DNA of 64,000 nt from Eggerthella lenta DSM 2243 (GCF_000024265.1 NC_013204.1:978180-1042179); one strand, 5' to 3'. Shown: positions 17,448-55,032, counted from the stretch's first letter. Notes: generated by a model from the letters alone, not told the origin. Numbers and translations are program-made.

Positions 17448-17451
17448 AGGC

Positions 17452-24773: not shown

Positions 24774-25007
24774 GGTGTGGAAACCTCCCGGCACCATGGC
24801 TCAAGATTCGACCCAAAGCCGACTATTCCCATGGGCGATTGCCGAAAATGCCCCCAATCGAGTTGTGTTTTTCTCTCCATATGGACCGTTTATGGAGAAA
24901 AGCGCCTTCGTTTGCCGTTAATCGCGCAACCCGCGCGTTGAAACTCCCCCTCAGTGGGCATAAAGACCCCCAGGCCGCCGCTGCCGGCGGCTTACCCTCC
25001 GAGACGG

Positions 25008-25575: not shown

Positions 25576-25944
25576 ATGGGAAGGAAAGAGTCCGCCGGGA
25601 ATCAGGCCGGCACGGCGAGGATGACGGTCGGCGATAGGTTCTGGGCGCGGCGCATCCGCCCGATCTTCGACGACGGCGACCTCACGCTCGAGCAGAAGTC
25701 GGTCTTCTGCTGCATCGTGGCGCGCGACCCCATGTCGGTGGCGATCGAGTGCCCGGCGCGCGACATCGCGGCGGCCGAGGCCGGCCTGCCGCGCCGCGAC
25801 TACGACGAGGCCCTGGACGCGCTCGAGCGCGGCGGCTACATCGTCGACATCGTGACGCCCTACGGCGAGGATCGGGACGGGGAACTCTGCATGGTCCCGA
25901 TCCCCGCCGATATCGTGAAGGAGGGGGTGCAGTGCCGTGGGTAG
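25576..25944 (+). CDS. Hypothetical protein, first gene of the second replication module; alternative starts at 25555 and 25561.
   Basis: GGAGGG RBS 7 nt before ATG 25576. High GC3. Overlaps the start of the following rep gene. Confidence 0.45.
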   Translation: MGRKESAGNQAGTARMTVGDRFWARRIRPIFDDGDLTLEQKSVFCCIVARDPMSVAIECPARDIAAAEAGLPRRDYDEALDALERGGYIVDIVTPYGEDRDGELCMVPIPADIVKEGVQCRG

Positions 25945-27349
25945 CGCCAAGAGACACGACGCATCGGTGCAGTCCGCCGACCCCACCCGCGACGAGCTCG
26001 ACGAGACCTTCGAGATCCTGGACCGCGACGGCGCGGTCGTCGTCTTCGGCGGCGACCTCATGGAGTGCGGCTTCGGCATCGTCTCGGCCAAGGCGACCGA
26101 GGACACCCGCCTGTCGTCGTCGGCCAAGGGCGTATACGCCTACTTCTGCGCCCATGCCGGCGCGGGCACCCATTCGCTGTTCCCGTCCGTGGACACGATC
26201 TGCACCCACCTCGCGATGTCGCGCAACACCTACTACCGCCACCGCCGCACCCTGGTCGAGTGCGGCTACATCAGCGTGCACCAGGGTCGCGCTCAGGGCC
26301 GCGGGCGCTATCTCTCGAACCGCTACGTCGTCAATGCCGAGATCCCCGAGGAGCGCCGTTTCGTGCCTGTCGATAACTCGAAATCGGCCGATGCCGCCGC
26401 TGTTGAAAACTCGCTTGGGGAAGACGCCGAAAACGAAGTTATCAACAACCCGCAGGATTCGCCGTGTACCAAAAATTGGTACACGGGCGACCAAACTAAC
26501 GTTAGTTTGCAACTAGATTCACCGTGTACCAATTTTTGGTACACGGGCCCAACTGGGAAAACGATTTCACCGTGTACCAATTTTTGCGACACTAACAAGG
26601 ATGTTGTTATTGATGTTAGTGAGAGAGGGCGCGCGGGCGCGCTGCCGTCTGTCGAAAACTCGGCGGTGTCGAAGGCCGCGGGCGACTCGGTCACGGTCGT
26701 GAAGGTCGCGTCGGAGGCCGGCCTTGGGCTCGAGACGGAGGTCTCGGTCTCCAACGCCGAGGTGCTTGCCCTCATGCGCATGTCCATCGGCAAGGCGGAG
26801 GTCTTCGCCGACGTCGCCGAGGCTTATGCCCGTGTGCTGGCGGACGGCTGGACGCTTCCGCGCATCGGCCGCGCCTACGACACATACCGCCGCGAGTACG
26901 CGGCATCGCACACCGACGGCCGCTACATCATGTCGCTGCCCAAGTTCCTCGCCGCCGGAAACGGCCTGAGGTTCTACGACCTGAGGGCCGATCTTGTCGA
27001 TTCCGGCGCCGTGGCCGCGGCCGAGGGGAAGGCCGCCCCGTCGAAGGCGCCGACCCGCGAGCAGGTCCGAAATTACGTGCACGAGAAGGGCTATGACGCC
27101 CCCGACCCGGACAATCCCGCCTACCGCGTGATCGACCCCGATGAGTTCTTCGACTACTACGAGGCGACCGGCTGGGTCCGGGCGGGCGGCGTGCCGATCG
27201 TCCGATGGAAGAACGTCGTGAACACCTGGCGCCGCAAGCCCGCGCCGCGCTCCGCCCGTAAGTTCGGCCCGTCCGGGCCGAAGAGGGCCATGAGCGTCGC
27301 CGAGCGCGTGGCCGCCGATAGCGATTTCAGCGAATTCAACGACGACTAG
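25937..27349 (+). CDS. Replication initiator-like protein (wHTH paralog of the 770..1270 product) with an internal iteron/palindrome tract.
   Basis: SSAKGVYAYFCAHAGAGTHSLFPSVDTICTHLAMSRNTYYRHRRTLVECGYISV parallels the first Rep wHTH. It is followed by a DnaC-like gene. A low-complexity linker is encoded by the repeats. Confidence 0.6.
   Translation: MGSAKRHDASVQSADPTRDELDETFEILDRDGAVVVFGGDLMECGFGIVSAKATEDTRLSSSAKGVYAYFCAHAGAGTHSLFPSVDTICTHLAMSRNTYYRHRRTLVECGYISVHQGRAQGRGRYLSNRYVVNAEIPEERRFVPVDNSKSADAAAVENSLGEDAENEVINNPQDSPCTKNWYTGDQTNVSLQLDSPCTNFWYTGPTGKTISPCTNFCDTNKDVVIDVSERGRAGALPSVENSAVSKAAGDSVTVVKVASEAGLGLETEVSVSNAEVLALMRMSIGKAEVFADVAEAYARVLADGWTLPRIGRAYDTYRREYAASHTDGRYIMSLPKFLAAGNGLRFYDLRADLVDSGAVAAAEGKAAPSKAPTREQVRNYVHEKGYDAPDPDNPAYRVIDPDEFFDYYEATGWVRAGGVPIVRWKNVVNTWRRKPAPRSARKFGPSGPKRAMSVAERVAADSDFSEFNDD
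26456..26592. repeat. Three direct repeats, each containing the palindrome GTGTACCAAAAATTGGTACAC, plus CACTAACA..TGTTAGTG inverted repeats; an AT-rich island inside the rep gene and a candidate origin.
   Basis: Copies GATTCGCCGTGTACCAAAAATTGGTACACGGGCG (26456), GATTCACCGTGTACCAATTTTTGGTACACGGGCC (26516), and partial GATTTCACCGTGTACCAATTTTTGCGACAC (26563). Confidence 0.65.
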
Positions 27350-27371: not shown

Positions 27372-28403
27372 ATGAACGACACGCAAGCGCAGGCGAGGCC
27401 GGTGAGGCCCACGCTCGAGGAAGTCGAGGCCTACGTCCATGGGAAGGGCTACGACGTGCCCGGCGCCGCCAACGCCTTCTACGGCAACTTCTTCTACGCC
27501 TACCACGACGCCCGCGTCTGGCGGCGCGCGGACGGCACGCCGGTGGCCGACTGGAGGGCGGAGGCGGACACGTGGCATGAGAGGGGGCCGCACTACCTCG
27601 AACCGGAGCCACGCGCCGCTGCCCCGGCACCCGCGGCGTCCGCTCCGGTCTCGGCGCCGGCACCCGAGGCCCCGGTCGCCTCGCCCGAGGCGCTTTCCGT
27701 CGGCGGTGCCCTGCCGCCGCTCGAGGTCGCCGACGTCGCGACCTTGGCCGCGACCGACCGCGCGTTCCATGAGGCGGTGGTCCGCAAGACCGGCATCCCG
27801 CCGCGCTTCGCACGCCGCATCGCCGAGGGCGAGGCCGCCCCGGAGCATGCCTATGACGCGCGACTCGCGCGCGGCGGCGGGCTGTACATCTACGGCCCGC
27901 GCGGCGTGGGCAAGACCGAGCTGGCGTGCCGTATCGCCTACGACTACGCCGGCGCGCGGCTCGATCCCCGCTTCGGCAACTGGGCGTACCGTCCCGTCCC
28001 GAAGGGCAGGCCCAAGCACGGCGTCAGGTTCGTCGTCTCGGCCGACCTCATGACCGAGCTCCGCTCGACCTTCGACAAGGGAGGGGACAGCGAGGCCGAC
28101 GTCATCCGCAGGTACGTGAACGTCCCGGTCCTGATCATCGACGACCTGGGCAAGGACTCCTCGACCCAGTGGGTGCTCGCGAAGCTGTTCCAGATCGTCA
28201 ACGGCCGCTACGAGGCCGAGCGCGCCACGATCGTGACCAGCCAGTACACCCAGGCCGGCCTCGCCGCGGTGCTGTCGGAGTACGGCCGCAAGGAGGACGC
28301 CCTGGCGATCGTCTCGCGCCTGGCCGAGATGACCGAGCGCGTCAAGGTCGACGGCCCGGACCGCCGCATGGCGCCCTGCGACGCCGAGGGGGCCGGGCGA
28401 TGA
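27372..28403 (+). CDS. DnaC/IstB-like AAA+ helicase-loader ATPase (second copy).
   Basis: Walker A LYIYGPRGVGKTELA. Walker B VLIIDDLGKD. ..TIVTSQYT. Ala/Pro-rich N-terminal linker. Confidence 0.75.
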   Translation: MNDTQAQARPVRPTLEEVEAYVHGKGYDVPGAANAFYGNFFYAYHDARVWRRADGTPVADWRAEADTWHERGPHYLEPEPRAAAPAPAASAPVSAPAPEAPVASPEALSVGGALPPLEVADVATLAATDRAFHEAVVRKTGIPPRFARRIAEGEAAPEHAYDARLARGGGLYIYGPRGVGKTELACRIAYDYAGARLDPRFGNWAYRPVPKGRPKHGVRFVVSADLMTELRSTFDKGGDSEADVIRRYVNVPVLIIDDLGKDSSTQWVLAKLFQIVNGRYEAERATIVTSQYTQAGLAAVLSEYGRKEDALAIVSRLAEMTERVKVDGPDRRMAPCDAEGAGR

Positions 28404-31297: not shown

Positions 31298-32704
31298 ATG
31301 ATGCTTTTCGAATCTTTGATCTTCAACCTGCTCCCCGCAGCCGTCGGCATCATGGCCGTCGTGCTGGTGTTCGAGAGCTGCTGGCGCAAATGCCCGCCGG
31401 ATAAGCTCATGATCGTCTCCGGCGCCGGCAAGATGCGCTCCGTCTCCGGCAAGGGAACCTTCGTAATCCCGCTCCTCCAGCGCGTGGACACCCTCTCGCT
31501 CGGTGCCGTGCAGGTGCAGCTGACCACCGAGAACGATATCCCGACGCAGGACGCAATCCTCATCCACGCCTGCGCCGTGGCGAACTTCCAGATCGGCCAG
31601 ACCCCCGAGCTGATCGAGACCGCGTCCAAGAACTACCTGAATTTGGACAAAGAGGAGATGACCCGCCAGGTCACCGAGGTCATGCTGGGCAAGATGCGCG
31701 AGGTCATCGGCCAGATGGACCTCAAGGAGCTCATGCGCGACCGTGAGAGCTTCAACGCGAAGGTCTTCGGCGGCTCCAAGGATGACCTCGCCAACCTCGG
31801 CCTCGAGCTGCGCACCTTCAATGTGCAGGACTTCTCCGACTCCCAGGGCATCATCCGCTCCATGGGCGCCGATCAAGCGGCCGAGATTAAAAAGGAAGCC
31901 GAGCTGGCGCAGATCAAGGCGGCCGAGGAGGTCGCCATCCGCCAGAACCAGCTCGACTTGAAGCAGGCCGACCTCAAGAAGCAGGCCGACAAGGCGAAGG
32001 CCGAGGCCGATATGGTGAAGGCCACCGTGACGGCCGAGAAGCAGCGCGAGCTCTACATCGCCCAGCAGGAGGCCGAGATCGCTGCGGAGACCAAGAAGGT
32101 CGAGCTCGCCGAGCGCCAGGCGGACGTGAGGGAGCGCGAGCTGAACGCGACCGTGAAGAAGCAGGCAGAGGCCGACCGCTACGCCGCAGAGCAGGCGGCC
32201 GAAGCCGACCTCTACAAGCGCACGAAGCAGGCCGAGGCCGCCCGCATCGAGCGTCAGAACCAATCCGACGCCGAGCTGTATTCCGTCCAGAAGGACGCCG
32301 AGGGCATCCAGGCCCGCGCGAAGGCCGAGGCCGAGGCCACGCGCTTGAAGGGCGAGTCCGAGGGTGTGGCCGAGAAGGCCCACGGCGAGGGCGTCGCGGC
32401 GGGAATCAAGGCCCAGGCCGAGGCGTACAACGGCATGGACAACCCCTACCTGCTCGCCAACCGCTACATCGACATCATGCCCAAGGTAGCCGAGCAGGTT
32501 GCGAAGCCCCTCACTGCCGTCGATTCCATCAAGATGTACGGATCGGGCAACGCGCAAAAACTCGTAAAGGAGACCACATCGATTGTCGACCAGGTCGCAT
32601 CCGGCCTGAAGGACAGCACGGGAATCGACCTGCCGTCCCTGCTGAACGGTCTGATCTCGAACCCCGATATCGATGCCGACTCCGCCGAGAACTCGGTGGA
32701 GTGA
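31298..32704 (+). CDS. Flotillin / SPFH (band-7) family protein.
   Basis: N-terminal TM. SPFH core (..VQLTTENDIPTQDAILIHACAVANFQIG..). Long Ala/Glu/Lys coiled coil, then the flotillin C-terminal region. Confidence 0.85.
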   Translation: MMLFESLIFNLLPAAVGIMAVVLVFESCWRKCPPDKLMIVSGAGKMRSVSGKGTFVIPLLQRVDTLSLGAVQVQLTTENDIPTQDAILIHACAVANFQIGQTPELIETASKNYLNLDKEEMTRQVTEVMLGKMREVIGQMDLKELMRDRESFNAKVFGGSKDDLANLGLELRTFNVQDFSDSQGIIRSMGADQAAEIKKEAELAQIKAAEEVAIRQNQLDLKQADLKKQADKAKAEADMVKATVTAEKQRELYIAQQEAEIAAETKKVELAERQADVRERELNATVKKQAEADRYAAEQAAEADLYKRTKQAEAARIERQNQSDAELYSVQKDAEGIQARAKAEAEATRLKGESEGVAEKAHGEGVAAGIKAQAEAYNGMDNPYLLANRYIDIMPKVAEQVAKPLTAVDSIKMYGSGNAQKLVKETTSIVDQVASGLKDSTGIDLPSLLNGLISNPDIDADSAENSVE

Positions 32705-33967: not shown

Positions 33968-35812
33968 ATGGAAATGGCAGACGGTGACCGCCTTACACCG
34001 GAACAGGCCGAGGCGCTGAGCGCGCTGAGGGACGGGAGGAACGTGTTTCTCTCGGGCAACGCCGGCACGGGTAAGAGCTACGTGCTCAACGCCTTCATAT
34101 CGGACCTGAAGGCGCGCAATGTCGATTTCCTCGCCCTGGCGCCCACCGGCATCGCCGCGCTGAACCTCACGGACGGCTCGACGATCCACCGCACGCTGAA
34201 AATCGCGCCGGGGGTCTGCGCCCCCGATGGCCCCAAGGGGTCCCGCAAGGTGCTCGACGCCGCGAAGGTAATCATCATCGACGAGATCTCGATGTGCCGC
34301 ATCGACCTGTTCGACCACGTGATGGGGATGATCTCCCAGTCCATGACGCGCAACGGCGCGAAGCAGGTGGTCCTCGTCGGCGATTTCTTCCAGCTGCCGC
34401 CGGTCGTGACCGAACGCGACTCCGCGCTGCTGATGAAGTTCTATCCCGGAAACCTCCAGGGCTGGTGCTTCAAGTCGAGGTACTGGACCGGCTTCGATTT
34501 CGAGCCGCACGTCCTCAAGACGGTCGTGCGCCAATCCGCCCCCGATTTCATCGACAACCTGAACCGCGCCCGCGTCGGCGACGCGTCGTGCCTCGATTAC
34601 TTCAACGCGCACTCCAGGAGTTCCCGCGCCTACCTGCCGAAGGACACGCTCGTGCTGTGCGCCAACAACCGCATCGCCGACTCGATCAACCGCGAGAACG
34701 TCGACGCGCTCGACGCCCCGAAAGTCGAGTTCACCGCGGCGGTCACGGGTATGGTCAACAGCGGCGATAAGATGGCGCCGGAGAGGATCGTCCTGTGCCG
34801 CGGCGCCCGCGTGATGTCGCTCGTGAACAGCCCTCAGGAGGGTTACGTCAACGGCACGCAGGGCACCGTCACCGACGCGTCCGCCGACGCCGTGACGGTC
34901 AAGTTCGACGGGGCGGACGAGAAGGTCCGCATCGAGCGGCACAGATGGGAGATCAACAAGTCCGAGGCCATCGTCGAGATGGACGAGGAGGGCAGGCCTG
35001 TCAACAGGGTCAAGACTGCCGTCGTGGGTGCCTATACCCAGATCCCGCTCAAGCTCGCCTACGCCATCACCATCCACAAGTCGCAGGGCCTGACGTTCGA
35101 TGCCTGCTGCGTCCACACGAAAGTCTTCGCCGAGGGCCAGCTGTACGTCGGCCTGTCCCGCGTGCGCTCCGCCGCCGGCCTCACCGTGTTCCCCAAGATT
35201 GAGCCGAACCGCCTGATCGCCAGCCGCGAGGTCGTGGAGTTCTACGATTCCCTCGAGCACAGGATGGAGGAGCCGGTCCAAATCGAGTGCCCGCGCCGCT
35301 ACGAGTCGCGGGTCCGCGCCTACATCCGAGACCTCATGGACGGCAGGGACCCCGACGCCCCCACGCCTCCCGCCCTGGAAGGCGCCCTGGAGAACAGCAA
35401 GGGAGGTACCCCGGAACCGGGGACCGAAAGACCGGCTCGAACCCTCGAAGAGAAGATTGGGGCGGATATAGTTGCCCGTGCCACCTTCGCCCTCAAATTT
35501 GCAGTTTCGAGTGCCATGTCCAAGGACCATCTTGAGGCCAAGATGCTCCTAGCCGGGTACGTACTTGATTGGGGACGCGCTCCGCATGAGCTCTATGTCG
35601 TCTGCAAGGAGGGCGGTTATCGCGTCAGCGCATCGGAACTGGGCATCCGGCGCTCCGAGATTGAGGCGAGGATTGCGAAAAACTCCGGCTTCGACTTGGG
35701 CTCCGCTCGTCGTCAGCCGAGCCCGTCCGACTCTCGTCCTGGGAGGCGGAAGGGCTCGGCGAAAGAGTCCGCCGGTCGCACCCGAAATACACGCAAGGCG
35801 AATAAGCGGTAG
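33968..35812 (+). CDS. Pif1/RecD-family (AAA_30) DNA helicase.
   Basis: Walker A FLSGNAGTGKSYVL. Walker B IIIDEISM. VVLVGDFFQLPPV. C-terminal YAITIHKSQGLTFD and VGLSRVRS motifs. Confidence 0.8.
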   Translation: MEMADGDRLTPEQAEALSALRDGRNVFLSGNAGTGKSYVLNAFISDLKARNVDFLALAPTGIAALNLTDGSTIHRTLKIAPGVCAPDGPKGSRKVLDAAKVIIIDEISMCRIDLFDHVMGMISQSMTRNGAKQVVLVGDFFQLPPVVTERDSALLMKFYPGNLQGWCFKSRYWTGFDFEPHVLKTVVRQSAPDFIDNLNRARVGDASCLDYFNAHSRSSRAYLPKDTLVLCANNRIADSINRENVDALDAPKVEFTAAVTGMVNSGDKMAPERIVLCRGARVMSLVNSPQEGYVNGTQGTVTDASADAVTVKFDGADEKVRIERHRWEINKSEAIVEMDEEGRPVNRVKTAVVGAYTQIPLKLAYAITIHKSQGLTFDACCVHTKVFAEGQLYVGLSRVRSAAGLTVFPKIEPNRLIASREVVEFYDSLEHRMEEPVQIECPRRYESRVRAYIRDLMDGRDPDAPTPPALEGALENSKGGTPEPGTERPARTLEEKIGADIVARATFALKFAVSSAMSKDHLEAKMLLAGYVLDWGRAPHELYVVCKEGGYRVSASELGIRRSEIEARIAKNSGFDLGSARRQPSPSDSRPGRRKGSAKESAGRTRNTRKANKR

Positions 35813-35820: not shown

Positions 35821-35862
35821 GAAATGGGAAGGCCGAATCTCCCGGCCTCCCCATTTCATTTT
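35821..35862. terminator. Bidirectional hairpin terminator between the convergent helicase gene and the PIWI operon.
   Basis: GAAATGGGAAGGCCG-AATCTC-CGGCCTCCCCATTTC followed by ATTTTCG. Confidence 0.45.
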
Positions 35863-35875: not shown

Positions 35876-38401
35876 CTACCGTCTGCCGGTGAGCTCCCAG
35901 TCCCAGATATACTCCTCGACCTGCTCGGCGAGATGGAGCGGGGCGGGAAGGTTCACCCTCATATCGTTCTTGTAGAGCTGCACCATGCAGCCGCGCAGGG
36001 CCTCGGCGTATTTGACGCTGGCAAGCGCCTCGGCCTCGCCACCGGGCGACAGAAGGCAGTACTCGTTGATCGTCTTCTCGCAGAACGCCGCGGTGGGCGA
36101 ATCGTACTTCGATCCGCGTGCGGACCATTTGTACTGGGCGTCGCCCGGTCGCGGGGCCAACGCGAGGAAGTAGCCGTCCATCTTGAAGAGTCCCTGCTTG
36201 TCGCGCCTGTTCGGCACGGTGCCGTCGTCTGCGCCGCCCGCGGCCACCTCATCCGTGAACCAGTCGGGGATCTCGCCGTTGAGACCGGAGCGTATACGCA
36301 GGATGCGCAGCTTGCTGCCCGCGAGGCCAAGCGGCTCCTCATAACCGGTCGGTCCGTAGCTCAAGGGTCCCGACTCGAGGCCGGAGTCGCTGATGCCGGG
36401 CCACCAGTCTCTCTGCCGGATGCGGCCGTAGGAGTTGATGAGGAGGAGTTCCGGCCTGTCGCCGGTGGCGCGGACTATGCCGTGGAGCATCCTCTTCAGG
36501 GCCATTCCGTTCGCCCGCTTGCAGGAGTCCGGAAAGCCCTCGGAACCGCTCAGCCGGGCGAACTCGATGAGGGCGCGCCAGTACGGTAGGCTTCCGTCAG
36601 GTAGGAGGGGGCAGTACACGGTGACGGCACCGCTTCTCATGTCCTGTCGGACGCAATAGGGGAAGCTCGCCCGCGCCTTGCCGTTGCCGGAGTTGTAGAC
36701 CTTCAACCCTATCGCCGGGATCGAGGTGTCGATGCCGCGCGAATTGCGTGCCGGTTCGGGTACGAAACCGAGCTGGCGCATGAGGTCGCGGACGGCGACG
36801 CGCGCGCGGATCTCGGGACTGTCCTTCGAGTCCTCGGGTTCGATGAATTGGGTCAGGCGCCCGGTTTTCGCGAACGCGATGCGCAGGGCGCGCTTGGGGT
36901 CTCCGCCGTCGTCTTTGCCCTTGGGCTTGTAGCTCTCGGCGCCCGGCAGGACCACTATGCACGCGGTCGGGTCGGTCGCCTCGGGAAGCGCGGCGGCGAC
37001 TTTGCGCCAGCGGATCTTCGCCTGGCTGTCGCCGGTATTCTCCATGCGGTTCAGGAGGTCGTTTGCCGGGATGTTATCGATCTCGACCTCGAAGTCGTCG
37101 ACGGCCCCCTCCCCGCCGAGAAAGCGGGAGATCTCGGCCCTTGCCATATCGAGGAGCCGGGCATCGTCCTGGTTGCCGATCAGCTGGAATACGGCCCTGT
37201 CCCTGCCGGTGCAGCGGGCGAGTCTGGCGCGGTTGGCCCGGCCCCAGGCCTCCTGTCTCGCCCGTGCGCTGACGGGGTCCTTGTCCCAATCCGCCTGCCT
37301 GGGTTCCTCTATGGACGCCTTGAGATGGGTCAGTTGAAGCGAGTCGAGCGCACCGACGGGCTCCGCGATATCTTTGAGCCGAGCCGCGACGGCCTCGAAG
37401 AACATGGCCTTGTCGATGACGGATGCCCCGCTTGCGACCGAGGGCTTCGATGCCCAGGAGGCGGTCATCGCGTAGGGGGATAGGATCTGCGGCTGCGAGC
37501 CGTCGCGGGCGTACCTGCCCATGTCCTCAAGATACTCGCGGACTGCGGGCAATCCGGTCCCGCTGGCGAACTCGTAGTTCGCCAGGGCCGCGGGGTCCCA
37601 GGCCAAGTCGCGCTTCTGTTTGTCGTAGCCGTAGGGGACGACGCGGAGCGTGCCGCCTTCCGTGCGGACGTAGGCGTTGACATCGTGTTTGAGGAACGGG
37701 TCGTCCTGCCATGGCTTGCCGATGAAGCGGCGGACGGCGACATCCATGTTGAGCCTTGCCTTGCGGCCGACCGGCAGCGTCTCGACGTGGAATCTGAGGG
37801 CGAACGCCCACGGGTCCTCCTTGTGCCAGTGGATATCGGAAATCAGCTCGTAGACGTTTCCGTTTCCGCGTGAGACTCTGCTGAAGTTCTCGACCATGCC
37901 GTTGGCGAGTTCGAGGGGGATGCCGGCGATGACGTCGGCGACTTGCGCGGAGAATGCGGGGAAGGTGAGCCCGCCCGCGGGACGGCCGTCGCCGCTGAAC
38001 AGGCAGATCTCTTCGCCACGCACGGCCTCTTCGAACGTCTCGGGGTGCAGCATCCCCATCACCTTGCGGTAGGCGGGGGATTGGGTATCGATGTCCTTGC
38101 GGGAGGAGATCCAGACCGCGATGACGTTGCATAGCTTCGCGAGATCAATGGGGGCGAGGGCGATAAGCCAGCTGTCGGTATGCACGTTGGGGCGTACGGG
38201 GTTCAGCTCGACGGCCCGGTCGAGCCAGCAGCGCAGGTCGTCCTTGAGGACTTTGGTGTTGAGGTAGCCGCCCTCTTTCCTCGGGGGCATGAGCGTGAAG
38301 AGGGCGTCGCGCAGGCTGTCGGGCAAGCCGACGACGTGCACGGTCGTCTTGGTGTCGGGGACGGGTGCGAATGACATGAGGTGCAGCTTAGAGTCCGACA
38401 T
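35876..38401 (-). CDS. PIWI-domain (Argonaute-like) protein, about 841 aa; third gene of the PIWI-RE-type operon.
   Basis: Internal Met at residue 67 with GGAAAGGAATCGGAA RBS. PIWI signatures GIDTS (G-x-D-V/T-S-H-like) and C-terminal VNLPAPLHLAEQVEEY (PAP-x-YYA-like Ago tail). No P-loop. 14-nt overlap with the upstream helicase gene. Confidence 0.65.
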   Translation of the reverse strand: MSDSKLHLMSFAPVPDTKTTVHVVGLPDSLRDALFTLMPPRKEGGYLNTKVLKDDLRCWLDRAVELNPVRPNVHTDSWLIALAPIDLAKLCNVIAVWISSRKDIDTQSPAYRKVMGMLHPETFEEAVRGEEICLFSGDGRPAGGLTFPAFSAQVADVIAGIPLELANGMVENFSRVSRGNGNVYELISDIHWHKEDPWAFALRFHVETLPVGRKARLNMDVAVRRFIGKPWQDDPFLKHDVNAYVRTEGGTLRVVPYGYDKQKRDLAWDPAALANYEFASGTGLPAVREYLEDMGRYARDGSQPQILSPYAMTASWASKPSVASGASVIDKAMFFEAVAARLKDIAEPVGALDSLQLTHLKASIEEPRQADWDKDPVSARARQEAWGRANRARLARCTGRDRAVFQLIGNQDDARLLDMARAEISRFLGGEGAVDDFEVEIDNIPANDLLNRMENTGDSQAKIRWRKVAAALPEATDPTACIVVLPGAESYKPKGKDDGGDPKRALRIAFAKTGRLTQFIEPEDSKDSPEIRARVAVRDLMRQLGFVPEPARNSRGIDTSIPAIGLKVYNSGNGKARASFPYCVRQDMRSGAVTVYCPLLPDGSLPYWRALIEFARLSGSEGFPDSCKRANGMALKRMLHGIVRATGDRPELLLINSYGRIRQRDWWPGISDSGLESGPLSYGPTGYEEPLGLAGSKLRILRIRSGLNGEIPDWFTDEVAAGGADDGTVPNRRDKQGLFKMDGYFLALAPRPGDAQYKWSARGSKYDSPTAAFCEKTINEYCLLSPGGEAEALASVKYAEALRGCMVQLYKNDMRVNLPAPLHLAEQVEEYIWDWELTGRR

Positions 38402-41400
38402 TTCCGATTCCTTTCCTGAACGACTCGTAGAACGGCCCGTAGAGGGCTTTGGCGACCTCCGGCTGGTCGCTATCGTGCATGAGGCGTTCCATGTAGGCGC
38501 CGAGCTCTTCCAGGGTCCTGAACGAGAGCTTCCCGTCGCCGCCGCGGAAGGCCGCATCGGCGAAATAGACATGCGGCGCGGGCCTCTCCTTATCGGCAAG
38601 CCTCGCCAGACGCCCGAATATCTGGATGATCGTGACCATGAGCGTGGAGATCGCGTCGTCTACGAGGAATTGCCTGCCCATGGTCCTCCATGCGCCCATG
38701 GGAAGGTTCTCGTCCCGCTCCATGGTCTTCCATGTGCGCCAGGCGGAGGCCCTGACCTCGGTCGCGAACTCCCCGGGATTGGCCGGGTAGTCGCCGACCT
38801 CCCTTTCGATGAGGCCGTTGAGCTTGCGGTATCGCCCGCCGAGGTCGTGCGGTGTGCCCATCGGGCGCACCGAGAAGATGAGGCTCGTGAAAACGGCATG
38901 GCCGCCGCGGTCGACGATATTGAAGCCGCGCTCGATGGCCATGGCCGGCGCCACGAGCACTTTGGCCGGATGGTCGCAGAACTTGTAGACTTCGCTCCGG
39001 GGCACGAAGTGCTCCCTGTGGTCGTGGTTGTTGCGCACCAGGGCCGCGACCTTGATTGCCTGGCCCTTGCGTCGGAACTCTTGCTCGATGCGGTCGCGTG
39101 CGTCCTCGGCCTCCCGGTAGCTGTTCACGATGACCAGGGCCTTTCCCGCGCCCTCCGCGTCGAGTTCGTCCCTCAACGTGGCCATGGTCTGCGATAGGAC
39201 GATGCCGAGGTTGCCGGAACGCATCTCGGCGGCGCTGCCGGACACGTTCTGCTCGATGCCGAGGTCCCTCACGGTCGAGGTGGAGAGCTTGGCCGCCTTC
39301 CACGGCTCCGCCTCGAGGAGGTAGTCGACCGGCCTGTTCACGTGGTATTGCAGGCAGCCGGGCTCCCAGCTCGAACCGGAGAGCAGGAGCACGTGCGGCC
39401 CCAGCGCCGCCCCGGCGGGGTCGGTATCGAGCCAGGGCAGCGAGCACATGAAGGCCCGCCCGAAGGCGAACTGCCGGAAAAGCCTGAGGTCGTTGCCGTC
39501 GAGCTTCATCCCGAAGATGTTGCCGATCAGCGAGTTGGGGAGATAGTGCTGCTGGCGCGTGTAGCTGAACTTGAGGAAGTTGTACAGCTCGTCGACGGAA
39601 TCGTCCTTGAAGCTGAGGAGGTCCTGCGCGGAGGCGAGTTCGCGCAGATACGAGTCGAACCGGATGACCTTGAGGGCGAAGGAGAACCTGGTCCGCAGCT
39701 CGTCGGGAAGCTCCGAGCATCCGCATGCAGCGAGGTATTCGTTCAGCGAGTAGCTGTGGGTGTCGTCGTCGATGCCCTCGCAGGAGGTCGCGACCGCCTG
39801 CGAGAGCTTGTTGAGGGCCGCGCCGCCGCCATCGAGGCTCTTCTTGGCAATCTCGAATCTATAGGGGTTGATGAGTTTGTCGGCATCCTCGTAAACCTGT
39901 TTGGGAAGGCCCTGCTCCAGGAGGTCGTTCAGAAGCGAGAGCGACGTGAACGCCTCGTCCTTGACGATGCGCCATTTCGCCACGCGGTCGTCCCTGACGG
40001 ATTTGAGCAGCGCCTTCGCGACGGGCTCGGATTTCTGGCGCAGGTCGTAGAAAAGCTCCTCGTTGAAGTCCCTCATCTTGTCGTCCGGGCGCCGCTTCAC
40101 GGCCACGGCTGTCGGGTCGGCGGCGTTGCGGATGAGCTCCTGGAAGCTCATGCTCGGGGCGAAGCAGCCGTCGAGCTGCGCCTGCACGCGGTCCGCCTCA
40201 TCGAACAGGACGACGTCGAACTGCTGAAGGGCCTCCTCGAAGAATGCCTTGCGCTCCCTTCCGACGATCATGGTGGCGAAGCCGGTGGGAGTCGTGACCA
40301 CGACGTCGGATGTCAGGGACTCGCGGGCCATGGCCTGCGATGGGCACACGTCCCAGTACGGGCATGAGTTCGCGCCGCCCTTCTTGGACCGGAGGCCGCG
40401 GCATGGCGTGTTGCCGTATCCGCAGGCCTCGGGATCGGAAGAGGAGAGCCCGTCCATGATGCAGGCGGTCTCCAGGTATTTGGATGCGGAATGGTCGAGG
40501 AGCATGGAGTCATCGTGGTCGAAGAACTCGTCGAGCCGTTCGATGCGCCTGCCGCGCGACACCAGGGGCGAGGCGCTGATTCCCGCCTCGCGAAGCAGGA
40601 CGACGCTTTCCATCACGTCCGATACCGAGTTGAGCAGGGATACCGCGCGCAGGCCGCGCTTCGCGAGGCAGACGATGAGCATGTTGGCGAGGACGGACTT
40701 GCCGGCGCCGACGAGGCCGACGAGGCTCACGACCTCATCGAGGCGCAGGCCGTCGGCGACGGATGTGCTGCCGCCGCGTGCCCGCTTGAGGAGCCCCTGG
40801 TCCTTGACCCTTCTGAGCACGGCGGCGTAGTGGGTCTTCCCGGTCTTCTCCCCGACTTCGTCCGCGGTCGAGATGAGCTCGTCGAGGGTGATATCGATGG
40901 GCGGGCGCCTGCTCTTGCGGGGGATATCGTCAATCTTGCCCGTTTGGGGCGGCACGGCATCGGGTATGGTCACCCAACGGATCGATCCGGTTACCGTGGT
41001 ATCGCCGGTCGCCTCGGGCTTGCATGTGTAGGAATACCGTCCTTTGGGTCTCGCGACCACGTTTTTATGGGAGAGTTTGACATCGCCGAGGAGGCGGTCT
41101 ATATAGATCGGCATGCGGTCGATCCCGGTAAGGGGGTGCTCGCGCAGGGCCATTCCGCCGTTGGCGATATCGAAGAACCGGTACCGCTCATATTCCGCGC
41201 GCTCGTAGAGGCCCAGCAGTCGCCGCCAGGCCGTGGATGAAGCCAGCGAGAACAGGTGTCGGCGCGCCATCTGCATGAGGTGGCCGTCCGCGCCGATGGT
41301 CTCGGGCCTGATGAGCTGGTAGTTCGATAGGAGCCTGTCGGCCTTTCGGGGATCGGCGCCGGGACCGCATACGCGTACCGCGAGCGCGAGCAGCGACTCC

Positions 41401-41510
41401 ACATTCAGGAACTCGTCGAGGGATAGGTCGCTGTCCTCGGGATAGCGCACCTCGAGATTGCGCTTCAGCTGGTCGAAGCCTTCCTGGGCTGTATCATTCG
41501 GCTCGCTCAT
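38388..41510 (-). CDS. DinG-like SF2 helicase with an Fe-S (4-Cys) insertion between Walker A and Walker B, about 1040 aa.
   Basis: GGGAGG RBS. Walker A LVGLVGAGKSVL. Cys cluster ACGYGNTPCRGLRSKKGGANSCPYWDVCP. DEAD-type VVLFDEADRV. Motif VI QIFGRLARL. ATGA overlap with the upstream gene. Confidence 0.75.
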   Translation of the reverse strand: MSEPNDTAQEGFDQLKRNLEVRYPEDSDLSLDEFLNVESLLALAVRVCGPGADPRKADRLLSNYQLIRPETIGADGHLMQMARRHLFSLASSTAWRRLLGLYERAEYERYRFFDIANGGMALREHPLTGIDRMPIYIDRLLGDVKLSHKNVVARPKGRYSYTCKPEATGDTTVTGSIRWVTIPDAVPPQTGKIDDIPRKSRRPPIDITLDELISTADEVGEKTGKTHYAAVLRRVKDQGLLKRARGGSTSVADGLRLDEVVSLVGLVGAGKSVLANMLIVCLAKRGLRAVSLLNSVSDVMESVVLLREAGISASPLVSRGRRIERLDEFFDHDDSMLLDHSASKYLETACIMDGLSSSDPEACGYGNTPCRGLRSKKGGANSCPYWDVCPSQAMARESLTSDVVVTTPTGFATMIVGRERKAFFEEALQQFDVVLFDEADRVQAQLDGCFAPSMSFQELIRNAADPTAVAVKRRPDDKMRDFNEELFYDLRQKSEPVAKALLKSVRDDRVAKWRIVKDEAFTSLSLLNDLLEQGLPKQVYEDADKLINPYRFEIAKKSLDGGGAALNKLSQAVATSCEGIDDDTHSYSLNEYLAACGCSELPDELRTRFSFALKVIRFDSYLRELASAQDLLSFKDDSVDELYNFLKFSYTRQQHYLPNSLIGNIFGMKLDGNDLRLFRQFAFGRAFMCSLPWLDTDPAGAALGPHVLLLSGSSWEPGCLQYHVNRPVDYLLEAEPWKAAKLSTSTVRDLGIEQNVSGSAAEMRSGNLGIVLSQTMATLRDELDAEGAGKALVIVNSYREAEDARDRIEQEFRRKGQAIKVAALVRNNHDHREHFVPRSEVYKFCDHPAKVLVAPAMAIERGFNIVDRGGHAVFTSLIFSVRPMGTPHDLGGRYRKLNGLIEREVGDYPANPGEFATEVRASAWRTWKTMERDENLPMGAWRTMGRQFLVDDAISTLMVTIIQIFGRLARLADKERPAPHVYFADAAFRGGDGKLSFRTLEELGAYMERLMHDSDQPEVAKALYGPFYESFRKGIGNVGL

Positions 41511-42709
41511 CGCGTGCCTCCCTTCGCGGCGGCATCGAGTCGTTTCGAGAAGTTGCGCAGCGTTTCGCATGAATAGCCGGTCTTGCCGCGCAGGACGGCA
41601 TTGCATAGCGCGCGATATCCGGGATGGTCCCGTTCGACTTGGTCCGGCACGACATAGGCCACCTCGTCCGCGCACATCTGGGCGATGCCGGTGTCGTCCT
41701 CTATCTCGCGGGCAAGCCGCTCGGCGCGGCCGTATGCCTTGGCGTCGACGGCAAGCTGCCGGCCGTCCGGCAGATGGATCAGGATGTCGCAGGTGTCCTT
41801 GAGGGGCCACATTTCGTATTTCAGACCGAGGCCCGCTGCGGCCTCGGCGATCGCCAGCTCGAGCTTTCCGGGGGAAGAGATGTAGTGCATGACGCCGCGG
41901 GATAGGCGGAAGGCGTCGTGCGCGACGCTGTCCAGCTTGTCGAAATCGCCTGTGACGGCCTTGGCGCACGTCGCCGATGAGCAGTGGGGCTGCTTGCCTC
42001 GCATGGTCATCGTCCAGCCGCAATTCGGGCATACTTTTGCGGCGCCCGGGACGGGTTCGTAGGCCATGGAGACGAATTCCTGCAACCACACCGGGTCGAT
42101 GGTGTCGGCTTCGCCCTGGTCGAGGGGGTCGGGGTCGCCCAGGGCGAGCCCCGTCTTGATCCTGACGTATTCGTTCCAGGTGAGCAGCGGGTGGCGGATG
42201 AGCATCCTGCGTCCGTACACGTATTGCTCCTGGGTGCCGGCTCGGAGGAATTCATACACCCTGCGTTCCTGATGGCCGCCCAAGAGGTCGTTTTCCGCAA
42301 AGCGCAGTACCTCGTAGCATTCCGACGTCGCGGCGAAGTAGTCGCCGTCTACTGACGCCAGGGGCCCGATCTCGATGGACCGGCACCCTTCGACGGCTTC
42401 CCTGCACTCGTCGCGCCACCGGGCCGTCCACTCGCGCACGTCTGACGCTGCGCTGTTCCTGATGAAATCGGACTCATTGAACGTCGGCAGCAGCTCTTCC
42501 GCATCGTCGGAGCACTCAGCGCACAGCGCGGCGAGGATATTCATGCCGTGTCTGAATGCCTGGCTGTAGGGATACCTATGCGGGTCGGCCTCGTAGAGGC
42601 CGTCCTTCTCGGCGATGCCGTATGCGATGAGGAATACGGCGGTCTCGAAGCGGTTGGCGATATCGCGGGCTTTGCCGGCGGCTTCGGCCGCGGCGATCGG
42701 GTCGGACAT
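41507..42709 (-). CDS. Zn-ribbon plus PD-(D/E)xK (restriction-endonuclease-fold) nuclease-like protein, about 400 aa; first gene of the operon.
   Basis: AGAGGTGG RBS. CPNCGWTMTMRGKQPHCSSATC (4-Cys ribbon). HLPDGRQLAVDAKAY fits PD..(D/E)xK. Confidence 0.6.
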   Translation of the reverse strand: MSDPIAAAEAAGKARDIANRFETAVFLIAYGIAEKDGLYEADPHRYPYSQAFRHGMNILAALCAECSDDAEELLPTFNESDFIRNSAASDVREWTARWRDECREAVEGCRSIEIGPLASVDGDYFAATSECYEVLRFAENDLLGGHQERRVYEFLRAGTQEQYVYGRRMLIRHPLLTWNEYVRIKTGLALGDPDPLDQGEADTIDPVWLQEFVSMAYEPVPGAAKVCPNCGWTMTMRGKQPHCSSATCAKAVTGDFDKLDSVAHDAFRLSRGVMHYISSPGKLELAIAEAAAGLGLKYEMWPLKDTCDILIHLPDGRQLAVDAKAYGRAERLAREIEDDTGIAQMCADEVAYVVPDQVERDHPGYRALCNAVLRGKTGYSCETLRNFSKRLDAAAKGGTR

Positions 42710-42895
42710 GGACCACCTCTTTATTGGAATTGGCATACACAGCAGCTTTGATACCCGCCCCCGCCGCGCTTTACACGCCCCTACCGAAACTCGACGGATA
42801 AAAATGCCCCCGCACCGGCTCGAATCGAGTGAAAGACTTCCCGCGCACGGGGTAGAAACAGCTGGGACGGTACACATCCGCGCGAAAGGTCGGAC

Positions 42896-43720
42896 ATGTC
42901 TAGGGTGGCCTATGGGCAAAAGGGATACAGCGGCGCCTCCATGAGCGTGAACGCGCGGGCGGCCTACGAGGCGGGGGAGATGCTCCGCTCGAAATGGACC
43001 AAGACGGCGATCCTCGGCGCCTTGAGGGGCTACTGCGATGAGATGGACCTGCTCTACGACCCTGCGGTCGAGTCCGAGACCAAGGCCGCGCTCTTCGACC
43101 GGTTCATCGCCTCCTCGTCCTGGCACCACACCGGCGCCTACGCCCGCGAGACGGAGTTCTTCGCCCTGGACGAGGCCGCCGTGGTCGGGGCGTTCCGCGA
43201 GCTCGGGCCCGAGGAGACGGCCGAGCGCGACCGGATCCGGGCGCAGGCTGCGGCCCGGGTGCGGGAGGCGGAACGGCATCGGAGGGAAGCGGAATGCCTA
43301 TTCGAGTACCGCTTCTCCTGCTCCCCATATAGCGCCATGGCGTACGAGGCGTTCCATCCCGAGCTGTGCGAGCGCCGTGTGAGCAAACACAGGAAGCAGG
43401 AGCTCGTCGTGTACCGGCTGCCGGACGGCAGCGAGCCGTCGGGCTATGCGGAGATGTCCGTCCCGGCGGACTATGCGGACAGCAGCCATGTGGTGCCGTC
43501 GGTTTTCATATCCGGCACGGGCGGGGATCGCGCGTGGCGCGATATCGACTTCGACGAGGCCGAGCGGAAATTCGCAGCGGCGGCGAGAAGGGCCGCGGCC
43601 TTTCGCGAGGGGAGACCGAAGCTCATGCAGGACGAGGCCAGGCGCGCTGCGATACGTGAGACTCGGCACCGCGTCTGCACCGCCCCCATTTTGAAGAGCA
43701 TAAAGGAGATTCACAGGTGA
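42896..43720 (+). CDS. Hypothetical protein, divergent from the PIWI operon.
   Basis: High GC3 ORF. A lower-GC divergent promoter region (42710-42895) separates it from the operon. Confidence 0.45.
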   Translation: MSRVAYGQKGYSGASMSVNARAAYEAGEMLRSKWTKTAILGALRGYCDEMDLLYDPAVESETKAALFDRFIASSSWHHTGAYARETEFFALDEAAVVGAFRELGPEETAERDRIRAQAAARVREAERHRREAECLFEYRFSCSPYSAMAYEAFHPELCERRVSKHRKQELVVYRLPDGSEPSGYAEMSVPADYADSSHVVPSVFISGTGGDRAWRDIDFDEAERKFAAAARRAAAFREGRPKLMQDEARRAAIRETRHRVCTAPILKSIKEIHR

Positions 43721-51061: not shown

Positions 51062-51610
51062 ATGAAGACAATCGTTTTGGTCAACCAAAAGGGCGGCGTC
51101 GGCAAGACGACGTTCGCCGACGAGATCGCCTGGGGCCTCGAGCGCCGCGGGCGTGAGGTCGGCTTCATCAACCTCGACCCGCAGGGCGGCGCGAGTCACG
51201 AGCAGAAGACCGTCGAGGGCGAGAAGGCCGTCACCGTCGTCGACACCCCGGGCTATCTGAACGACAAGCTCGGCGGCTGCGTGGAGGTCGCCGACATCGC
51301 GATCGTCCCCGTCGAGCCCAGCCAGCGCGGCCTTCGCGCGATGAAGCGCACGATCCAGCTCATCACGGGCGTCAACCCCGAGCTCGAGATCGGCCTGATC
51401 GTGAACCGCTATTCCGACAAGCGAATCATCGACCGCAGCTTTACCGACTTCCTCACCGCCGACGACCTGCCCATCCTGGGCTGCGTGCCGACCGCCGAGG
51501 CGTTCAAGCGCGGCGCGTCGTTCAACCGACCGGTGTCCGAGGTGCAGCCGGGCGGCCGCGCGGCGGACGCGATCGAGGGGATTCTGGACAAGGTGGAGGC
51601 GATGCTGTAA
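51062..51610 (+). CDS. ParA-family partition ATPase (short form).
   Basis: Deviant Walker A VNQKGGVGKTT. 182 aa. Confidence 0.8.
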   Translation: MKTIVLVNQKGGVGKTTFADEIAWGLERRGREVGFINLDPQGGASHEQKTVEGEKAVTVVDTPGYLNDKLGGCVEVADIAIVPVEPSQRGLRAMKRTIQLITGVNPELEIGLIVNRYSDKRIIDRSFTDFLTADDLPILGCVPTAEAFKRGASFNRPVSEVQPGGRAADAIEGILDKVEAML

Positions 51611-53211: not shown

Positions 53212-55032
53212 GTGCTGAGGGGCCGGGGAGTGCAGGCCACACAGCTGCCCGAACCTGCCGCCGTCCCAGTCCAGCGCCCCGCGTCTCCCGCCCTGGCTCC
53301 CGCACTGAGGACCATATCGGGAGAGACACCGCACTACCGCGCGCGCTTCGAGGTCGCAGCGGCCGACGGCGCGGACGCGGCCGAGGCCGTGAAGGAGATC
53401 GTCATGGGCTGGCTGCACGCCAAGGGCCTGGACGTACCGGAGGGCGCCGCGGACATCGCGGTGCCCGCGGGCTGGACGGCCGCCGACGAGCCCGACGCCG
53501 CCAAGGCCGTCCGCTTTCTCGGCCTATCCGGCGCGCAAGGCGCGGCATGGGCGGTCGAGGCCGATGAGCTCGACGGCGAGTTCTCGCGCCGCCGCTGGCA
53601 CACGAGGATCGGCCTCGCACCCGCCGGAGACGGCGGGTGCATCCTCAACGTGCAGGTATCGCACTACGCCGTCAACGGCTTTTTCGGATACCAGCGCAAC
53701 CCGCTGCCGTCCGTGCCGCGCGTCGTGCGCGATATCCTTGCGAACGGAAAGCTAGACGTGAGGATCGGCGCGTCGCGTGTGAGCGTCGAGGAGATATACC
53801 TTGACGCGGACACGCTAAAGCGCGATTTCATGTCGAGCCTGACCGATCGCGCGCGCTGCCTGCCGATCGTCCTCATGACGACCGACGACGACGGCAAGAC
53901 CCCCGTATGGGATGCGACCGAGCTCGCATCGAAGCTCGTGGGCATGGCCACCGTGTACGTCATCGACATGCGCGACGGCGCGTTGGTGCAGGCGTTCCGC
54001 GACCTGCTGCCCGACCGGACACCGGCCGGGCGCTACAGGATCGGGCGCAGCGCGGTCATGGTATACCGTCCGGGTATCGACCTGTCGGGCGAGGAATCTC
54101 TATCGGCCTGCACGCTCTTCACGCGCCACAGGATCGAGCGCTATGCCGCGGGCGGGCGCGACGGTTTCATCAACGTGCTCATGCAGGGCCTCGGCCGCGG
54201 CATCGACGCCCGACCGGGCGACGTCGCCGGAATCGGCGACGTGCTGTGGCTGCGCAGCCGAGTCGAGAGCGAGCGGCAGGGCGAGCGCATCGAGCGCCTG
54301 CGCTCGCGCGCGAAGGCGGCAGCCGAGCCGGTCGCCGATATCGACGGGCTGCGCGCGGAGAACGCGCGCCTGCGTGCCGATGCCGAGGCCTGGGAGGAGA
54401 TCGCGACGGACCAGGAGCGGAGCTATTCCGACGCCACGGCAAAGGTGGACGAGCTCACGAGGACCGTCCAGCGCCTCGAAGGCGAGAAGCGCGCGCTCGA
54501 ACGCAAGGCGGCGCAGTGCGCGGCACCGTCGGACGACGGCGGTGCCGCGAGGGTGGCCGAATGCCTCCAGTCGATCCCGCGCGACCTGACGGACCTCCTG
54601 AAGCTCGCGCGATCCATCTGGCCCGAACGTATCGTCGTCCTGCCCGAGGCAATGGACTCCGCGAAGTCCTACGACGGCAACCTCGCCGAGGAATGGGATA
54701 TCGTCCGCAGCACCGCGACGGCGCTCTACGGCCTCCTGTTCGAGGACGACGGTTGCGAGGGGCAGGTCGCAGACGAGTTCCAGCGCCGTACGGGCTACGA
54801 GCTCACCTTCAGCGAGAGCAGCGCCACCAGGGCGCGCGCCGATCTGATGAAGATGCGCGAGAGGAGCTACGGCGGCCGAACCGTCGACATCTCCGCCCAC
54901 ATCAAGGGGAGGAGCCAGAAGAACACCTTCCGCCTTCACTTCTACATCGATCGGGAAAACGAGCTGATAGTCATAGGGCATGCCGGATGCCACATGAAGA
55001 CCGCCGGCTCGCACCGTCGCGGTTTCAAGTAG
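53212..55032 (+). CDS. Large hypothetical protein, about 606 aa; the true start may be internal.
   Basis: Long high-GC3 ORF with a coiled-coil segment (..AENARLRADAEAWEE..LEGEKRALERK..). No recognised catalytic motif. Confidence 0.5.
   Translation: MLRGRGVQATQLPEPAAVPVQRPASPALAPALRTISGETPHYRARFEVAAADGADAAEAVKEIVMGWLHAKGLDVPEGAADIAVPAGWTAADEPDAAKAVRFLGLSGAQGAAWAVEADELDGEFSRRRWHTRIGLAPAGDGGCILNVQVSHYAVNGFFGYQRNPLPSVPRVVRDILANGKLDVRIGASRVSVEEIYLDADTLKRDFMSSLTDRARCLPIVLMTTDDDGKTPVWDATELASKLVGMATVYVIDMRDGALVQAFRDLLPDRTPAGRYRIGRSAVMVYRPGIDLSGEESLSACTLFTRHRIERYAAGGRDGFINVLMQGLGRGIDARPGDVAGIGDVLWLRSRVESERQGERIERLRSRAKAAAEPVADIDGLRAENARLRADAEAWEEIATDQERSYSDATAKVDELTRTVQRLEGEKRALERKAAQCAAPSDDGGAARVAECLQSIPRDLTDLLKLARSIWPERIVVLPEAMDSAKSYDGNLAEEWDIVRSTATALYGLLFEDDGCEGQVADEFQRRTGYELTFSESSATRARADLMKMRERSYGGRTVDISAHIKGRSQKNTFRLHFYIDRENELIVIGHAGCHMKTAGSHRRGFK

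Follow-up and report, generated by a model that had tools for sequence, protein, structure and literature searches.

A three-gene pPIWI-RE locus with a predicted non-cleaving Argonaute-like protein on a conjugative element of Eggerthella lenta DSM 2243

Which system is encoded by the three overlapping minus-strand genes at positions 35876-42709 of a 64,000-nucleotide stretch of the Eggerthella lenta DSM 2243 genome (NC_013204.1:978180-1042179; the whole stretch is called the window below), and what might it do for the mobile element that carries it? An earlier description made from the DNA alone (the sequence-only reading) had seen in these genes a Zn-ribbon nuclease, a DinG-like helicase and a PIWI/Argonaute-like protein, had likened their content and order to the PIWI-RE system, and had put them forward as the best candidate in the window for an undescribed system. 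Our analysis indicates that the locus is almost certainly a canonical three-gene pPIWI-RE system, carried as cargo by an integrative conjugative element (ICE) of gut Coriobacteriia. The likeness in content and order was upheld, as dedicated Pfam and PADLOC models matched all three proteins. The claim of novelty was not, as the system was described in 2013 (PMC3702460) and has six dedicated Pfam families as well as PADLOC models. The kind is already known and is recognised by standard models, and the locus adds little as a discovery.

Identity of the locus

The minus strand of this region holds three long open reading frames (ORFs), each overlapping the next:

41507-42709, minus strand: gene A, pPIWI-RE-associated nuclease, 400 amino acids (aa), with an N-terminal helical region, a weak Y domain, a Zn ribbon and a PD-(D/E)xK restriction endonuclease (REase) domain
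38388-41510, minus strand: gene B, XPD/DinG-type superfamily 2 (SF2) helicase with an N-terminal Z domain, 1040 aa
35876-38401, minus strand: gene C, pPIWI-RE Argonaute-like protein (X domain, MID, PIWI), 841 aa

Genes A and B meet in an ATGA stop/start (4-nt overlap), genes B and C overlap by 14 nt, and a purine-rich stretch lies 5' of each chosen start. The GC content at third codon positions was 0.81-0.84 in the three genes (about 64% GC for the window as a whole), which indicates that they are real genes. The ORFs, their lengths and both overlaps were thus as the sequence-only reading had given them.

In Pfam searches, gene A matched pPIWI_RE_REase (E = 9.7e-28, aa 281-398), while its match to pPIWI_RE_Y reached 17.8 bits against a cut-off of 26.7. 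Gene B matched pPIWI_RE_Z (PF18155, 1.1e-34), and gene C matched pPIWI_RE_X (PF13111, 1.2e-67), MID_pPIWI_RE (PF18157, 1.7e-18) and RNaseH_pPIWI_RE (PF13032, 2.6e-43), all above the curated cut-offs. PADLOC identified A as PprRE (6.9e-25), B as PprDinG (6.3e-94) and C as PprPIWI (3.7e-143). NCBIfam gave a weak YoaA/DinG-type match for gene B alone (1.1e-05, far below cut-off). Searches of the PDB by sequence or profile found no relatives of A, B or C, and returned P-loop and Zn-ribbon noise only.

The three-gene island was predicted by Burroughs, Iyer and Aravind (PMC3702460), who described a strict REase-DinG-PIWI order with overlapping termini, a nuclease with a Zn ribbon, a DinG helicase that contains a Cys-rich region as well as a helical insertion, and a PIWI protein with a conserved Arg and Glu. 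The present operon matches this definition in its order, in its overlapping termini and in having no methylase; the nearest methyltransferase (MTase) gene is 11 kb off, in a separate low-GC island.

The Argonaute-like protein

The domains of the gene C product are encoded as follows:

37205-38374, minus strand: X domain, aa 10-399 (PF13111 positions 1-396 of 396)
36752-37018, minus strand: MID domain, aa 462-550 (PF18157 and conservation)
35900-36712, minus strand: PIWI/RNase H domain, aa 564-834 (PF13032 and column analysis)

The AlphaFold2 (AF2) model of this protein had a mean predicted local distance difference test score (pLDDT) of 94.1 and a predicted template modelling score (pTM) of 0.93, and was bilobed like Argonaute. 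When it was compared with the PDB by Foldseek, the best 50 matches were all full-length Argonaute or PIWI proteins (E about 1e-13, about 10% identity). The PIWI/Argonaute-like fold proposed for the 841-aa protein was thus borne out by both profile and structure searches. The first three strands of the PIWI domain (563-570, 579-586 and 593-596) are followed in the model by helices 607-618, 623-629 and 632-646 and then by strand 651-656. The helices at 607-646, past the first three-stranded beta-meander, are the extra element predicted by Burroughs et al.

An exhaustive HMMER search retrieved 297 representative clusters related to gene C, and the 84 full-length ones were aligned. The family-defining Glu, E780, was invariant (84/84), and the Arg residues R702 and R704 were found in 80 and 83 of the 84, respectively; in the model, the two Arg belong to strand 698-705 and the Glu to strand 778-783. 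In the MID domain, D501 and R542 were invariant, the triplet D501-P502-K503 was near-invariant, and so were R507, R515, Q518 and D539. The C-terminal LPAPLHLA (LPAPLH at 818-823), noted earlier as a PAP-containing tail, is real, with P819, P821, L822 and H823 nearly invariant.

To locate the catalytic columns we used three homologues (P0113, P0115 and P0119), putatively members of the active subset noted in the 2013 paper. These have Asp at the columns of residues 567, in the middle of strand 1, and 658, at the end of strand 4. The window protein has K567 and Y658 at these columns, from which we conclude that it very probably lacks the catalytic aspartates and is not a nuclease or slicer. Most relatives have W, H or Y at 567; at 658 they have either a gap or a residue that is not acidic. 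The RNase H tetrad, which the sequence-only reading had wished to see checked, is thus predicted not to be intact. The same reading had taken GIDTS as a PIWI signature. D558 of this motif is Asp in only 10 of the 84 homologues and is located before RNase H strand 1, and GIDTS was therefore rejected both as a signature of the family and as the catalytic beta-1 motif.

PsPIWI-RE, the homologue from Pseudomonas stutzeri (Huang et al. 2022, PMC10991935), binds 21-nt RNA and DNA, and cleaves single-stranded DNA with RNA guides and RNA with DNA guides. Its cleavage requires D525 and D610, the conserved R and E being dispensable. The spacing of its D525, D610, R639 and E718 is only roughly compatible with our alignment.

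The helicase and the nuclease

The following features were recognised in the other two proteins:

40950-41432, minus strand: Z domain of the helicase, aa 27-187 (PF18155 positions 2-164 of 167)
40695-40718, minus strand: Walker A of the helicase, GLVGAGKS, aa 265-272 (G265, G268, G270 and K271 invariant)
40344-40463, minus strand: Cys-rich insertion of the helicase, with conserved C350, C370, C383 and C389; presumed 4Fe-4S domain
40191-40202, minus strand: motif II of the helicase, DEAD, aa 437-440 (D437, E438 and D440 invariant; DEAD or DECD in homologues)
41966-42031, minus strand: Zn ribbon of gene A, with invariant C227, C230, C243 and C248
41516-41869, minus strand: PD-(D/E)xK REase domain of gene A (Pfam, aa 281-398)

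The four Cys of the helicase were invariant in alignments of 10 and of 21 homologues, while C363 was not conserved. They sit in the stretch that separates Walker A from motif II, the position also occupied in XPD and DinG, and a helical block follows at about aa 456-654. The protein was modelled with AF2 from database homologues (pLDDT 82.7, pTM 0.85). The pLDDT fell to 58-79 in the Cys-rich insertion, a drop expected in the absence of the cofactor. The best Foldseek matches of the model were XPD, DinG, CasDinG and DdmD (E from 4e-12 to 3e-9), and the PADLOC model typeIV_DinG also matched the protein (9.4e-09). The 4-Cys insertion that had been singled out as the DinG/XPD hallmark is therefore present, in a protein with the corresponding fold.

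In gene A, the Zn ribbon has the form C227-x2-C230...C243-x4-C248, and its four Cys were invariant in 10 homologues, down to 28% identity. The marginal matches of this protein in a PDB profile search were all Zn-ribbon proteins. The REase core reads E284...D308...D322-A-K324, and E284, D308, D322, A323 and K324 were all invariant among homologues. Together with the pPIWI_RE_REase match, these invariant residues agree with the earlier description of gene A as a Zn-ribbon protein with a PD-(D/E)xK core.

Co-occurrence, spread and selection

We searched one genome per species with a narrow alignment, so that the sample of loci is biased towards relatives of this clade. Among the 23 loci found, 20 had homologues of A and B immediately before the PIWI gene and in unchanged order (tblastn), as expected from the co-occurrence that the sequence-only reading had supposed. 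The other three were a 2-kb contig and two partial PIWI matches. PIWI identity across the 20 intact triads ranged from 99% down to 25%, and their hosts included Coriobacteriia, Lachnospiraceae, Roseburia, Faecalibacterium, a Sphaerochaetaceae bin and a Bacteroidales bin. In 10 distant loci, the A-B junctions extended from -61 to +6 nt by longest-ORF starts, several being at -4 or -1.

All three genes are under purifying selection. The ratio of nonsynonymous to synonymous substitution rates (dN/dS) was 0.04-0.13 against a copy with 64-74% identity, with dS near saturation (gene A, 0.04 against locus L016), and 0-0.47 inside the 99% clade, where there were only 2-32 substitutions per gene. The exact PIWI protein was found in 378 blocks of an assembly collection and in the NCBI assembly GCA_003339975.1, and its 90% cluster has 4671 member sequences.

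The flanks of distant triads were mutually unrelated (GatA/GatB, a thioredoxin-reductase-like gene, UvrD, a PLD nuclease and an AAA_21 ATPase). In the window, gene C is adjoined by a convergent PIF1 helicase gene (33968-35812, plus strand). We rejected PIF1 as a fourth component, since it accompanied only copies that were 93-100% identical and was absent beside every distant triad. The unrelated flanks and this restriction of PIF1 to near-identical copies indicate that the triad is a self-contained mobile module. Triads with 98-99% protein identity and the same flanks (L007-L014 and L019) were observed in genomes labelled Collinsella, Gordonibacter and Eggerthella, which indicates recent transfer of the element between genera.

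Several copies deviated from the intact arrangement. The REase gene is split by a stop in a Roseburia metagenome-assembled genome (MAG; L020:2737-3906), and this triad may be damaged. The same may hold for Gordonibacter pamelaeae CCUG 55131 (L009:3892-4438), where the best helicase match begins only at residue 183 and gene A shows a 1-nt shift, and for Clostridium sp. AF27-2AA (L027:3983-7000), where the helicase ORF stops after 574 aa. In a Lachnospiraceae and an Eubacteriales MAG (L028:7001-8134 and L029:7001-7240), only PIWI-RE residues 453-834 and 691-780, respectively, were found, with REase and DinG absent upstream; these may be stand-alone or degraded versions. The 2-kb contig (L015) was binned as 'Porphyromonadaceae', probably through a binning error. 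Four metagenome calls (P0202-P0205) consist of a single 1440-aa protein with REase and Z/DinG Pfam domains, exactly 400 + 1040 aa, which is either a real variant, with a frameshift or read-through where the two genes share ATGA, or an artefact of assembly or gene calling.

Proposed function and its alternatives

Taken as a whole, the explanation that we consider probable combines the pPIWI-RE identity with guided interference by a catalytically dead PIWI protein. As to the mechanism itself, we lean by a modest measure towards a guide-loaded, dead PIWI protein that would sense foreign nucleic acid and pass it to the helicase and the nuclease. The PIWI-RE protein would bind a short guide, either RNA or DNA, whose 5' end would be anchored in the conserved MID pocket. 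Being presumably devoid of the RNase H aspartates, the protein would act only as a sequence-specific sensor of complementary strands. Its targets could be RNA-DNA hybrids or R-loops on foreign DNA that is being transcribed or replicated, or unwound plasmid DNA. Target binding would recruit or license the XPD/DinG-type helicase with its presumed Fe-S cluster, which would load on the displaced strand and translocate, and the Zn-ribbon PD-(D/E)xK nuclease would then cut the DNA. The net effect would be the removal of incoming plasmids, rival conjugative elements or phages, with a benefit to the host and to the carrying element. A guided handover to a DinG translocase and an REase is the model put forward in 2013 (PMC3702460). 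In favour of such a mechanism are the intact motifs of the helicase and of the nuclease, the conserved MID pocket, the strict synteny and the mobility of the element. The variable, unrelated flanks of distant triads are also as in mobile defence modules.

Several points weigh on the other side. Full-text literature searches found no experiment on any three-gene pPIWI-RE system. The statement of the sequence-only reading that neither biochemistry nor phenotype had been established holds for the complete system, but not for PsPIWI-RE alone (PMC10991935). The latter, which is the only PIWI-RE protein studied, is an active slicer, and its knockout caused ciprofloxacin sensitivity and filamentation rather than a loss of defence (PMC10991935). 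We found no small-RNA gene, Rfam non-coding RNA, tRNA, CRISPR-like array or repeat with the operon that could be a source of guides. The assignment of the catalytic residues depends on the alignment and on the secondary-structure register, and the 4Fe-4S cluster of the helicase is presumed from the conserved Cys.

A more specific proposal is that the triad is a three-part weapon against plasmids and other mobile genetic elements, akin to the DdmDE system of Vibrio cholerae, with which the element would clear rival plasmids, ICEs and phages from new hosts. We regard this as plausible, though a little short of probable. If true, it would be a second, independently evolved interference machine made of an Argonaute, a DinG helicase and a PD-(D/E)xK nuclease and, once shown, it would give the whole pPIWI-RE family its first experimentally grounded function.

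Alternatively, recognition of an invader by the dead PIWI protein could lead the helicase and nuclease to attack all cellular DNA indiscriminately, so that the cell is killed or arrested and the invader is not selectively removed. Such abortive infection would suit the pairing of a dead PIWI with a separate PD-(D/E)xK nuclease, and the characterised inactive long-B and short prokaryotic Argonaute (pAgo) systems act in this way (PMC11333966). Yet a processive translocase of the XPD/DinG type is typical of targeted degradation, as in DdmDE, Cas3 and type IV-A CRISPR, and not of collateral killers, and suicide of the host would be costly to a conjugative element. We therefore judge this explanation unlikely.

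Another possibility is that the three proteins maintain the DNA of the chromosome or of the element rather than attack foreign DNA; they might help to terminate replication, to decatenate or repair DNA, or to remove R-loops. Upon deletion of PsPIWI-RE, P. stutzeri showed an about 15-fold greater sensitivity to ciprofloxacin and became filamentous, and the authors proposed a role of the three proteins in replication and division (PMC10991935). DinG-family helicases act on R-loops (PMC3702460), and some of the element's replication-type genes lie in the neighbourhood of the operon (HTH_36 and IstB-like at 25.9-28.4 kb, PIF1 at 34-35.8 kb). However, the distribution of the triad is patchy and horizontal with variable flanks, the first gene of the operon encodes an REase without a methylase, PIF1 does not accompany distant triads, and the window PIWI protein is predicted to be unable to cleave, unlike PsPIWI-RE. 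A housekeeping role thus appears quite unlikely.

The REase has no cognate methylase in the operon, which would also fit a guide-independent, type IV (Mcr-like) or helicase-coupled restriction, with PIWI-RE sensing a structure such as an RNA-DNA hybrid or modified DNA. Burroughs et al. made the comparison with Mcr and proposed R-loops as the initiating signal (PMC3702460). We consider this very unlikely, as the MID residues that bind a 5' end are among the most conserved of the family, and PsPIWI-RE binds 21-nt oligonucleotides with Kd values mostly of 20-90 nM (152 nM for 5'-C RNA) and cleaves in a manner that depends on the type of guide. That the genes are decaying, non-functional passengers is highly improbable: some copies elsewhere are damaged (the REase stop in L020, the partial PIWI in L028 and L029), but the window copy has kept every catalytic and structural motif of its nuclease and helicase, dN/dS is well below 1, and the exact PIWI protein and its 90% cluster are abundant (378 assembly blocks and 4671 members).

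The conjugative element and its other cargo

The sequence-only reading had placed the operon as cargo on a conjugative element, with which the genes found in the window agree:

3452-5224: type IV coupling protein (T4CP)
6041-8551: VirB4-like ATPase
51062-51610: ParA
56244-57002: NikA-like protein
57004-59064: MobA/VirD2 relaxase

The window also encodes a cell-wall hydrolase and a thioester/SpaA adhesin with sortase. No integrase and no element ends were identified within the window. PLSDB had no nucleotide or protein match to the element and the exact PIWI protein was found on contigs of more than 1 Mb, so that a plasmid origin is less likely and an integrated element (ICE) more likely. Two IstB/DnaC-like ATPase genes are present on the plus strand (1285-2079 and 27372-28403). 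The second one is paired with an HTH_36 gene (25937-27349); both are replication-type genes, and the pair resembles a replication-initiation module.

Two intergenic regions border the operon:

35821-35857, both strands: intergenic hairpin between the convergent PIF1 and PIWI genes (fold energies, strand scan)
42710-42895: divergent intergenic region of 186 nt upstream of gene A, presumed promoter region from the gene arrangement

The hairpin had fold energies of -25.2 kcal/mol on the plus and -30.6 kcal/mol on the minus strand (z of -2.0 and -3.2, respectively), and is likely a terminator. A scan gave a hit for it on the minus strand, and a clear U-tract was present only on the plus strand. 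The convergent Pif1 gene was as described earlier; as to the bidirectional terminator of that description, the hairpin is stable on both strands, but a good U-tract was found for one strand only. The divergent promoter that had been proposed fared similarly. The gene arrangement is indeed divergent, the next gene being at 42896-43720 on the plus strand, but no sigma-70-like promoter was detected upstream of gene A in a scan limited to promoters of the sigma-70 type. A promoter in this region is presumed from the arrangement of the genes alone.

Other genes of the element deserve mention. A low-GC island (21000-25000; 48-51% GC versus 63-65% for the rest of the element) encodes an OLD-family nuclease (21305-22999; AAA_15 and OLD TOPRIM; PADLOC Old, 6.5e-59) and a Type III-like N6/N4 DNA methyltransferase (22959-24773; MTase_III, 3.9e-181) with no evident Res subunit. 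This island looks like a separately acquired defence insert. An SNF2-family helicase of 1085 aa (17428-20685, plus strand), whose best PADLOC match was 'C3a139 HKD+Snf2' (9.6e-107), with weaker matches to DrmD and BrxH, may be further defence or anti-defence cargo. A 606-aa protein (53212-55032, plus strand) had no Pfam match, but almost all of it was covered by a match to HEC-07, a PADLOC candidate family (1.7e-31). An SPFH/Band 7 flotillin-like protein of 468 aa (31298-32704, plus strand), encoded 3 kb from the triad, was conserved in every near-identical copy of the element. Towards the right end of the window (61800-64000), the GC content dropped to 51-55%, and an HNH endonuclease (62241-62969, plus strand) and an AbiEii-type nucleotidyltransferase toxin (63083-63829, minus strand) are encoded. 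The element may have its boundary here, or this end may be a further insert.

Comparison with known systems

What this analysis adds to the known pPIWI-RE family is the predicted inactivity of the PIWI protein, the XPD/DinG and Argonaute folds, a link to DdmD at the level of the fold, and recent spread between genera. The locus is a convenient test case, being complete, under purifying selection, very common in public assemblies and mobile between genera, and its predicted dead PIWI protein would separate sensing from cutting. Among the prokaryotic Argonaute systems, pPIWI-RE is the one branch for which literature and PDB searches gave neither a phenotype of the complete system nor a structure.

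Compared with the system as defined (PMC3702460; PF18154, PF18155, PF18156, PF13111, PF18157 and PF13032; PADLOC PprRE, PprDinG and PprPIWI), each protein of the window copy has the same domain families. The Zn ribbon with REase, the Cys-rich DinG with a large helical insertion, the conserved R and E, the extra helices past the first beta-meander and the want of a methylase in the operon are all shared, and there is no essential difference. The window copy differs from the models in that its Y domain is under the Pfam threshold and its proteins exceed the PADLOC profiles in length by about 100 aa. Within the family, it would belong to the catalytically inactive majority, and it is on a conjugative element. 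PsPIWI-RE, a member of the same protein family, is likewise encoded alongside a DinG helicase and a nuclease. It has the catalytic D525 and D610, whereas the presumed catalytic columns of the window protein hold K567 and Y658, so that no cleavage is expected of it.

In design, the locus would resemble DdmDE. The pAgo of that system is catalytically dead and uses short DNA guides with a 5' phosphate; it loads a DinG/XPD-like helicase, to which a PD-(D/E)xK nuclease is fused, onto the non-target strand of plasmid DNA (Loeff et al. 2024, bioRxiv 10.1101/2024.05.10.593530; PMC11795196). By analogy, the window locus would follow the same three-module logic of dead pAgo, DinG-like helicase and PD-(D/E)xK nuclease. 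The model of its helicase matched DdmD structures directly in Foldseek, and this parallel at the level of the fold gives a concrete, falsifiable hypothesis for pPIWI-RE. No relation to DdmDE was found at the sequence level, and no Ddm model was among the PADLOC matches. The differences are that DdmD has the nuclease fused to the helicase, while the window encodes a separate Zn-ribbon nuclease; that the INS domain of DdmD has no Fe-S cluster, while the window helicase retains four invariant Cys; and that DdmE belongs to the long-C pAgo clade, while the window Argonaute is from another clade and has a family-specific N-terminal X domain.

Type IV-A CRISPR-Cas with CasDinG (Csf4) also pairs a guide-bearing surveillance complex with a DinG-family helicase, and the window helicase matched CasDinG structures in Foldseek (E about 5e-10). 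No CRISPR array or cas genes were found in the window (repeat search, Rfam), and the genes next to the operon are unrelated ones. The window system differs in that its sensor has an Argonaute fold and a dedicated nuclease is present. Finally, the long-B pAgo-nuclease systems (BPAN) and the short pAgo system SPARDA resemble the window locus in combining an inactive Argonaute with a DNase effector of the PD-(D/E)xK type. In contrast with it, they have no helicase, act by collateral DNA degradation or abortive infection, and use Argonautes of other clades.

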